Virus record (IMG/VR): IMGVR_UViG_645058835_000001
Coordinates: 1 to 13,104 of that record
Reading direction: 5' to 3' (one strand)
Length of the DNA: 13,104 nt
Origin: a virus
Taxonomy: Duplodnaviria; Heunggongvirae; Uroviricota; Caudoviricetes
The notes below the pieces were generated by a model. The model searched no databases. It worked only from the letters and a program-made list of their open reading frames with translations, and was not told the origin of the DNA. The position numbers were made by a program, and so were the translations under genes. Below, one piece after another: positions 10,388 to 11,946 of the stretch. Within the stretch, counting starts at the first letter, position 1. Every line of letters starts with the position of its first letter.

Positions 10388-11614
10388 TTAATGCTTAAAT
10401 ACCTTCTGATTGTAATTTTTCTGCATGTGAATATTTTTGTTGTCGTTCATTTTTTTAGTGAAAAATCTAAACACAACAAACATACATAGCAATAGTTTAA
10501 TATTTCCAGAGAGATTGGTTATTATGGTTTCACTCATGAATTGAGTAATTAAACTCACACTAAGAATTGAATAAAGACCAAGCATGACAAGGTTTCCTGA
10601 TTTTGCAGACGAATATATTGCAGACAAAAGTACTCCATATATCATAGCACCAAAAGCAACCCCATAAATACCCATATCACTATAGAACGGCTGCATTACA
10701 GAATAAACATTTGTTGGTGATGGAATATATACGTAATCAAGGATTGTCTTTACTGGTTCTACTGAAGAAATACCAATCTTATAATTAATCGCATTAATAA
10801 ATCTAAGGGTGTAGTCACCACTCCAATTAATTCCGGAATCAATCAATGTTCCAAATGCAATCAAAGGTGAATAAATATAAGTGCCAAAAATATAAGCTAT
10901 CGTCGCCGAGTCATCATCAGACATTCTATAAAAATGCATGATAATAATACACGCAAGAACTACTGGGGCATATATGAATATTTTCTTCATGCTTATGCCG
11001 TTTTTTAATTCGTATATGGTAACAAACATCATTATTGGTGTAATAACAGCAAACTTACCCATTGTACCAATTGCAAATAATAAAATCCATGTGCAAACAG
11101 AAATCTTATCTATCCACCTTGATTTGAATATACATATAGATGCAAACATTGCCATAATTACCGGGTAAAAAGATGGCATAAATATAAACGTTGGGTACTG
11201 ATAGTCATCTTCTATATTAGCAAGCCTAAGATTCAACAAGAAATTAACAGGACCATTTGAACCAACTTTGTAAATTTCATAAGCGGTTATTAAGCAAGCG
11301 GGTATCGCTAATAATGAATATCTTGAGCATATCCTGTTTTTTTCTTTGATTTTATATTTTAATGGTTTGTTTCGTTGTGCAATTTCGAATACAGCATAAG
11401 AAAATGATGTTAATGATATCCATATCAACAAGCAGTAAAATGTTTCAACTCTGAAATCATAAAAGCTATCATAGGAAATAATCCCAGTAAAAGCCATAAA
11501 ATACCATGAGAATAGACTTAGCGATAACGGAGACGTAATTCTGCATCTCATATATTTTATAGCCAAAATATGCATGGCAGAACAAAGTACAAATATAATA
11601 ATAAGATATGTCAT
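10388..11614 (-). CDS. Polytopic inner-membrane protein, Wzy/EpsG-like (O-antigen polymerase-type) candidate
   Basis: About 408 aa, extremely hydrophobic and Ile/Phe/Tyr-rich with many predicted transmembrane segments; strongly AT-rich; sits between the tailspike and the integrase, where P22-like phages carry O-antigen modification genes. Start ambiguous: ATG at 11614 or TTG at 11632. Confidence 0.45.
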   Translation of the reverse strand: MTYLIIIFVLCSAMHILAIKYMRCRITSPLSLSLFSWYFMAFTGIISYDSFYDFRVETFYCLLIWISLTSFSYAVFEIAQRNKPLKYKIKEKNRICSRYSLLAIPACLITAYEIYKVGSNGPVNFLLNLRLANIEDDYQYPTFIFMPSFYPVIMAMFASICIFKSRWIDKISVCTWILLFAIGTMGKFAVITPIMMFVTIYELKNGISMKKIFIYAPVVLACIIIMHFYRMSDDDSATIAYIFGTYIYSPLIAFGTLIDSGINWSGDYTLRFINAINYKIGISSVEPVKTILDYVYIPSPTNVYSVMQPFYSDMGIYGVAFGAMIYGVLLSAIYSSAKSGNLVMLGLYSILSVSLITQFMSETIITNLSGNIKLLLCMFVVFRFFTKKMNDNKNIHMQKNYNQKVFKH

Positions 11615-11946
11615 AAAATAAGCCCGCAACAATTAAAATGCTGACACCCACTACTACTATATGATTAGTTTTTATACATACAGTATGTTCAAGAGTGAAA
11701 AGCCGCCTCTCGTTATCAAAATTTTAACATCCTGCGTGTTTTGTACAAGCAAGAACAGTCACTATCTTTCAAATATTCTAAAAAATCACCTTTACACCAT
11801 CTAAGACGATAAGAAAATGTGTGAAGTCTATCATCCAAGTCTCAATCGATCGATACTTGCGTTAGTTGATGAGAAAAAACTCTGGCACACAAGGCTTTGC
11901 AATGGCTTGCAAGGTTTTGTTTCTATCAGATAGTGGTTAAGGTGGA

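Follow-up and report, generated by a model that had tools for sequence, protein, structure and literature searches.

In this work, we present an analysis of a phage-borne O-antigen polymerase gene (wzy, of the type called hkcF in coliphage HK620), located between a tailspike gene and an integrase gene on the minus strand of the 13,104-nucleotide (nt) viral record IMGVR_UViG_645058835_000001; this entire stretch is referred to below as the window. We consider it probable, at roughly two chances in three, that the phage enzyme is specific for the O18 repeat unit of E. coli and has functionally replaced the host polymerase, most likely with a different bond between the units. The gene was present in 11 of the 5426 complete E. 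coli genomes surveyed, and all 11 carriers fell among the 69 O18 genomes recovered from this set in a search with the resident O18 wzy (hypergeometric P = 6e-22, calculated with shared ancestry ignored). The resident wzy was broken in 10 of the 11 carriers versus 3 of 55 non-carriers (Fisher P = 1.4e-8), and the phage gene was intact in all copies translated. From sequence comparison we infer that HkcF would polymerise O18 units; that it makes a linkage different from that of the resident Wzy is more speculative.

Carriers of the phage gene and lesions in the resident wzy

E. coli 357900 (NZ_CP038859.1) and the window agree at 99.96% identity; one extra A and four substitutions (window positions 3793, 7872, 10790 and 11086) set the window apart. 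It therefore stems from another assembly of this strain or from a strain very closely related to it, and not from that exact record. The substitution at 11086 places I177 in the Wzy of the window, where the HK620, PK8568, KL53, 873.10, E9 and 20AR0354 alleles have V177. In this closest genome the gene cluster for the O-antigen is of the O18 type, and its resident wzy, assigned to the 'O18ab/O18ac family', is annotated as frameshifted.

Resident wzy genes were aligned to that of UTI89. A 1-nt deletion at nt 385 was common to 357900, PK8568 and SZQ1, another at nt 54 was found in 873.10 (a strain named O18ac:H14), the insertion sequence (IS) IS1 interrupted the gene of QL57EC at nt 218, and 20AR0354 had an 11-nt deletion at nt 919. 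KL53 combined W88stop with a 1-nt deletion at nt 591; the same lesions were assigned without individual alignment to CFSAN051542, HH107 and OZ510750, whose genes are 100, 100 and 99.9% identical to that of KL53 and cover the same 1145-nt span. Only E9 retained an intact resident wzy. At least four of these inactivations are robust and independent. Non-carriers were counted as the 55 records with a readable span, three further records standing outside the count; 52 of them keep the full 1146-nt wzy, and the gene of MS20654 has an extra base. Close relatives differ as would be expected: FAM21845, a strain without hkcF, shares its Wzx and glycosyltransferase alleles with KL53, but its wzy is intact.

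In E9, the phage gene belongs to a seemingly complete P22-like prophage (locus L012, 3.38-3.40 Mb) situated in the bioA/ybhB (attLambda) region and not at argW. Its wzy allele is 97% identical, its tailspike is just 62% identical to that of HK620, and an 84-nt int fragment lies alongside. E9, its prophage apparently complete and its own wzy intact, may represent an early state.

Between alleles of the phage gene, the ratio of nonsynonymous to synonymous substitution rates (dN/dS) was 0.1-0.2. The proteins of KL53, 873.10 and PK8568 are identical, and those of E9 and 20AR0354 (406 amino acids, aa) diverge solely in their final ~10 cytoplasmic residues. In KL53 the remnant is reduced to an IS1-truncated tailspike fragment, wzy and intS, and in 873.10 an IS3 element splits the tailspike gene; wzy was left untouched in both.

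The remaining O18 cluster (four glycosyltransferases, wzx and the rml genes) is maintained in the carriers, and its comparison with the clusters of non-carriers revealed no carrier-specific substitution in the four glycosyltransferases or Wzx. The same repeat unit should therefore still be made, and it needs a polymerase. In 357900 only, the second GT2 glycosyltransferase of the cluster (locus L005, 4843-5589) has an altered, shortened C-terminus, with residues 1-247 of 262 matching; if real, this change could alter the repeat unit.

Identity and relatives of the phage polymerase

The open reading frame (ORF) occupies positions 10388-11632 (-) and is intact, coding for 414 aa if translation starts at a TTG. 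We favour the ATG at 11614, which gives a 408-aa product (10388-11614) and agrees with the homologues, with the GenBank annotation of HK620 and with a confidently modelled N-terminal helix; RefSeq pipeline calls in other genomes are shorter (367-395 aa). The GC content of wzy is 0.312, versus 0.434 for the tailspike gene, on which it converges, and 0.477 for int, which is encoded on the same strand with wzy 315-333 nt downstream of it. The original prediction of a polytopic, low-GC protein of ~410 aa, convergent with the tailspike gene and placed between it and int, agrees with all of these data.

The product matched the NCBIfam model TIGR04370 with 116.4 bits (cutoff 40, E = 1.4e-33) over profile positions 8-395 of 396. 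Since it also has 77 homologues at E <= 1e-5, and considering the dN/dS values given above, wzy is not a chance ORF. In Pfam, PF01901 (O_anti_polymase) was the sole family at E <= 0.1; EpsG, Acyl_transf_3, GtrA/GtrB, Wzy_C (ligase) and transporter families were not found at this threshold, and for this reason the acyltransferase, EpsG, ligase and transporter readings were dropped. From the initial label, Wzy/EpsG-like, only the Wzy part is thus retained, and the profile search proposed at that time pointed to a Wzy-type model and not to an unrelated transporter. No family of PHROGs or PADLOC matched the product, and a sequence search of the PDB gave nothing at E <= 10.

Hydropathy analysis distinguished 8 distinct hydrophobic segments (11 overlapping ones), in line with the polytopic topology expected, and the AlphaFold2 model (predicted local distance difference test score 89.5, predicted template modelling score 0.87) contains ~12 long helices, in agreement with the 10-14 transmembrane segments that, besides a large loop with conserved Arg residues, are expected of a Wzy. 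The best fold matches of this model in Foldseek were WaaL (the top PDB match), FtsW and RodA; WaaL, the SEDS proteins and Wzy have a common fold. Residues R130, R230, R271, K187 and D313 are invariant in 55 homologues. Judged by its sequence, the wzy product is a Wzy-type repeat-unit polymerase, and this predicted family membership is now secure.

With 98.5% identity in both nucleotides and amino acids, the closest phage relative is hkcF of HK620 (AAK28906.1), the last gene of this coliphage, annotated in 2001 as 'O-antigen modification protein, similar to Shigella flexneri O-antigen polymerase' and labelled in RefSeq as hkcF, 'oligosaccharide repeat unit polymerase'. It is likewise located between the tailspike gene 9 and int, in convergent orientation and with a terminator. 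Unlike HK620, the window is a ~13-kb remnant whose only virion gene is that of the tailspike, which is just 89.4% identical in amino acids to HK620 gp9. When 50,697 phage records were searched with tblastn, HK620 alone had a detectable homologue.

Wzy encoded in the chromosomal galF-gnd cluster of E. coli O18ab/O18ac belongs to the same family, has the same 31% GC as HkcF and is 42% identical to it over 366 aa (E = 1e-104). The two genes differ in locus and origin, and 58% of the aligned residues differ. Enzymes of different serogroups are usually far less alike (PMC7685785), and Wzy homologues that are not grouped together are less than 70% identical (PMC4379981). The degree to which HkcF resembles the O18 enzyme is in line with both recognising one and the same unit, or units that are very similar, and presumably they share the substrate repeat unit. 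HkcF is also 49% identical to an O-antigen polymerase of the O142 family.

Two further homologues indicate how such genes spread. A 65%-identical E. coli allele (P0005) resides in a prophage and converges with an HK620_9_C-type tailspike gene; it had 0 copies in the complete E. coli genome set and so provides no independent replicate. A 74%-identical Citrobacter gene adjoins a gtrA/gtrB-type glucosylation cassette. These contexts indicate that Wzy genes of the HkcF lineage are spread by phages as seroconversion cargo. The latter gene, the closest homologue outside Escherichia, is found on a contig of Citrobacter sp. Cpo221 (locus L022, 8001-12961), where gtrA and a GT2 (gtrB-like) gene are followed by a 499-aa ORF without a Pfam match; the locus lies beside torS, with no phage structural genes nearby. 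This arrangement suggests another domesticated seroconversion island, combining a polymerase with a glucosylation system.

Proposed mechanism and alternative explanations

Wzy polymerises O units linked to undecaprenyl diphosphate (Und-PP) at the periplasmic face of the inner membrane, and HkcF would act in this role. Its gene would have arrived on an HK620-like prophage of the P22 type, in the cargo position that separates the tailspike gene from int; subsequently the prophage would have decayed to ~13 kb and the chromosomal O18 wzy would have been frameshifted. With the resident gene in that state, the phage copy would be the sole intact O-antigen polymerase of the strain, and hence a domesticated gene.

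E. coli O units are built on Und-PP-N-acetylglucosamine (GlcNAc). The bond formed by the resident O18 Wzy, which we take to be alpha-GlcNAc-(1->2)-rhamnose (Rha), would be the one hydrolysed by the HK620-type tailspike. The HK620 tailspike acts as an endo-N-acetylglucosaminidase, the products of which have GlcNAc as their reducing end (PMC8217332, PMC6024685), and with units started on this sugar it would therefore cut the Wzy-made bond. It degrades lipopolysaccharide of the O18A/O18A1 but not of the O18B/O18B1 type, the stated reason being 'different glycosidic linkages' (PMC6024685). The initially suspected match between the cargo gene and the tailspike specificity is borne out in that the tailspike is of the HK620 type, the HK620 enzyme is O18A/A1-specific (PMC6024685) and every carrier is O18. 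Lysogens with a changed bond between the units would no longer be susceptible to the same phage, so that both the lysogen and the progeny would be protected. If no inhibitor is present, the two polymerases would compete, and this conflict would be resolved by repeated mutational loss of the host gene.

The closest precedent in gene order is Salmonella phage epsilon15, in which the tailspike gene (gp20), a terminator and a convergent phage wzy (gp21, Wzy-beta) form the same layout as in the window, and the outcome expected here would be as in epsilon15, namely a new linkage between the units that is unusable by the phage's own tailspike. The two systems differ in that epsilon15 encodes, directly upstream of wzy, a 66-aa inhibitor of the alpha polymerase with two transmembrane segments (Iap, gp22), for which the window has no counterpart: tblastn with Iap found no match in the window or in the HK620 tailspike-wzy segment (30611-38297), and a small-ORF scan upstream of the window's wzy detected no hydrophobic ORF of at least 20 aa. 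A divergent inhibitor encoded elsewhere in the full phage is possible. Carriers of the window gene lose the host polymerase by mutation, whereas epsilon15 uses its inhibitor. Between gp21 and the Wzy of the window there was no detectable similarity (best BLAST E = 0.028 over 31 aa).

In Pseudomonas phage D3, which carries iap, wzy-beta and oac, the phage Wzy replaces the host polymerase activity on the same repeat unit (literature cited in PMC12373910). Unlike in D3, neither iap nor an O-acetylase gene adjoins the window's wzy. The polymerases of D3 and epsilon15 are not detectably related to that of the window, neither having been recovered in the tblastn search of phage records at E <= 1e-3. 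The gtrABC and oac cassettes of P22, Sf6, SfV and CPS-53 take the same int-proximal cargo slot, and in other E. coli the slot next to IntS at argW holds gtrA/gtrB/gtr or acyltransferase genes. These cassettes decorate the finished repeat unit by glucosylation or acetylation, whereas HkcF would act at the polymerisation step. Of the lysogenic conversion first proposed, the role as O-antigen polymerase is thus kept as a predicted one, but the live temperate phage is not, as the DNA is a decayed remnant. Similarly, instead of modifying the product of the host polymerase, as the idea of an O-antigen modification gene implied, the gene seems to replace that polymerase, which is frameshifted in the closest genome; true seroconversion, with a polymer that actually differs, is presumed.

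Several observations weigh against replacement of the host enzyme by an O18-specific phage Wzy. Three of the single-base deletions fall in homopolymer runs (T5, A6 and A8), and the one in 873.10, known from a single assembly, could be an assembly error; the other lesions are more robust because they are common to independent assemblies or are not homopolymer events. PMV-1 and UM146, both non-carriers, have a frameshifted wzy (an A8-run deletion in both), so O18 strains can exist without an intact gene. Genomes that have lost hkcF are uncountable, which introduces an ascertainment bias, and the genome from which the host O-antigen gene cluster was deduced departs from the window at five positions. 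Experimental work on HkcF was not found in the searchable literature.

The nt 591 deletion in the A8 run recurs in the KL53 group of carriers and in the non-carrier B2 strains PMV-1 and UM146 (loci L010, L016 and L017), and in UM146 wzx is frameshifted as well. Either the run is a hot spot of strand slippage by which O18 polymerisation is turned off, or older assemblies have a recurrent sequencing error here.

The bond formed by HkcF cannot be read from its sequence and possibly is the same as that of the host. The host gene would then have been lost as a neutral event, and neither seroconversion nor phage exclusion would follow. We regard such a redundant copy as unlikely. HkcF and the resident Wzy are clear homologues over their full length, the data reveal nothing of the bond, and redundancy by itself predicts that one copy decays; however, a phage has no gain from duplicating a host function, and the characterised phage enzymes of epsilon15 and D3 alter the linkage. 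Moreover, the bond cleaved by the paired tailspike would be precisely the one that Wzy makes, O18B-type linkages are not cut, and it was the host gene that was lost, in nearly all carriers and repeatedly, while the phage copy was never lost in the remnants seen. The same persistence, in remnants of ~4 kb with a destroyed tailspike gene, makes it improbable that wzy is merely an unexpressed or non-functional leftover and that carriers are semi-rough, their core bearing just one O unit. Such inert cargo would agree with the outcome of the promoter scan, in which no consensus sigma-70 site was found upstream of wzy, on its coding strand in the spacer at 11633-11946, with the tolerance of a frameshifted wzy in PMV-1 and UM146, and with a frameshifted rfbB in FAM21845, which indicates that rough O18 strains exist. 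It does not agree with an ORF intact in every copy examined, with the low dN/dS and the identical protein in three of the strains, or with an O18 cluster that is otherwise intact in carriers.

We give very little credence to a different membrane enzyme, be it a WaaL-like ligase, an EpsG-type polymerase, an acyltransferase or a transporter. WaaL is the top structural match, and the Pfam Wzy model PF01901, although aligned end to end, stays just below its gathering threshold (21.5 versus 24.2 bits, E = 1.7e-4), which also counts against the polymerase itself. Nevertheless, TIGR04370 is far over its cutoff, the product is 42-49% identical to bona fide O18 and O142 Wzy, Pfam offers none of the competing families at E <= 0.1, and a fold common to WaaL, the SEDS proteins and Wzy is described in the literature.

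An extension of the replacement of the host enzyme by HkcF, which we put forward only tentatively and rate well below the replacement itself, is that HkcF may be the missing determinant of the O18 subtypes, so that strains with HkcF and a decayed wzy of their own would make the O18B/B1 (O18ab) polymer. According to Jann et al. 1992, GlcNAc is reportedly joined to Rha by a 1->3 bond in O18B and by a 1->2 bond in O18A (O18ac), and the side branch is said to be glucose versus GlcNAc. The difference in linkage would fit a polymerase swap, and the difference in side branch would need a glycosyltransferase change. Between carriers and their non-carrier siblings we found no glycosyltransferase difference that would explain the O18B side branch; it could reside in the few substitutions by which B2-lineage clusters differ from non-B2 ones. 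The reference strains for O18B have the H14 designation, which also appears in the name of the carrier 873.10 (O18ac:H14); this name is probably an in-silico call unable to separate ab from ac. No paper linking hkcF or HK620 lysogeny to O18 subtypes was found in the literature searched.

The prophage remnant and significance of the polymerase

The window is a decayed prophage remnant at argW and not a live phage. Approximately 13 kb of phage-related DNA are left between argW/intS and the cscA/dsdA region. Besides intS, wzy, an intact tailspike gene, an HNH endonuclease gene and arc, they contain fragments of dnaB and erf, both truncated, along with some early genes, a gene resembling rolling-circle Rep genes and one of the SIR2 family. 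The integrase gene (11947-13104, -; Pfam Arm-DNA-bind_3, Phage_int_M and Phage_integrase) is intact, argW-specific and named intS by RefSeq, with a tRNA-Arg 160 bp beyond it. In the int-wzy spacer (11633-11946, -), the list of ORFs of at least 20 aa includes no small membrane protein; this spacer presumably contains the promoter of wzy and the point where the int transcript ends, and HK620 has an annotated terminator at the equivalent place.

The tailspike gene (8078-10210, +; maximal ORF from 8033) encodes an intact HK620-type protein of 710 aa with the Pfam domains Head_binding, Phage_spike_2 and HK620_9_C. A hairpin terminator at 10349-10375, with a 12-pair stem, 6 GC pairs and then a T-rich tail, lies in the spacer that separates it from wzy; the HK620 late terminator tR' is annotated at the equivalent of window position ~10318-10343, in the same spacer and just upstream of this hairpin. 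Directly upstream of the tailspike gene, and divergent from it, is the HNH endonuclease gene (7481-8020, -; HNH_3 and an AP2-like domain, phrog_99), in a place taken in HK620 by hkcB, hkcC and remnants of ant/mnt. The gene probably entered the 'ant moron' slot by homing-endonuclease insertion. At 5431-7000, the truncated erf and a DnaB-like helicase fragment without either of its ends overlap on opposite strands (pseudogenes in RefSeq; locus L003, 17813-18802), which is a prophage deletion junction and shows how the remnant formed.

The left end of the window (1-2482; locus L003, 12001-14481) is taken up by the SIR2-family gene (GC 0.26-0.34), given in RefSeq as one 826-aa coding sequence. Its protein has a ThsA-like SIR2 N-terminus (PADLOC, 2e-12), weak matches to STAND NTPases and a TPR-like C-terminus, and we consider the gene a candidate for anti-phage defence. 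The extra A, in an A-run at 1194, splits it into the window ORFs 1-1230 and 1214-2482; this may reflect phase variation of the gene or a difference in sequencing. The Rep-like gene follows at 3189-4241 (Pfam REP_ORF2-G2P, phrog_30534). The block formed by both genes (window 1-4319) is 99.6-100% identical in unrelated E. coli genomes, where it occupies other chromosomal positions, and just beyond the window there is a gene for a serine recombinase (locus L003, 10417-11043). It looks like a separate small mobile island beside the prophage remnant.

The polymerase gene itself has been catalogued since 2001, and O-antigen polymerases encoded by phages have precedents in epsilon15 and D3. Three points appear unreported in the literature searched: that the gene is strictly associated with O18, that the resident wzy has decayed recurrently while the phage copy was domesticated within remnants that shrink, and that an inhibitor gene is lacking. 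We also found there no characterised phage-encoded O-antigen polymerase of E. coli. The genome comparison amounts to natural-experiment evidence for HkcF acting on O18 units and displacing the host enzyme.

Replacement of the polymerase is a route of serotype change invisible to in-silico O-typing based on the gene cluster. The O18ab and O18ac clusters are near-identical, and at present the subtypes are separated only by a nearby IS element (PMC4379981, PMC4732683, PMC12274568). If HkcF does determine the subtype, the presence of hkcF together with a broken resident wzy would become a marker by which O18A and O18B could be told apart from sequence; O18A is part of glycoconjugate vaccines against extraintestinal pathogenic E. 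coli, and O18-specific phages and tailspikes serve as tools. This subtype reading, if true, would mean an inhibitor-free polymerase swap that becomes fixed as the host gene is lost time and again.

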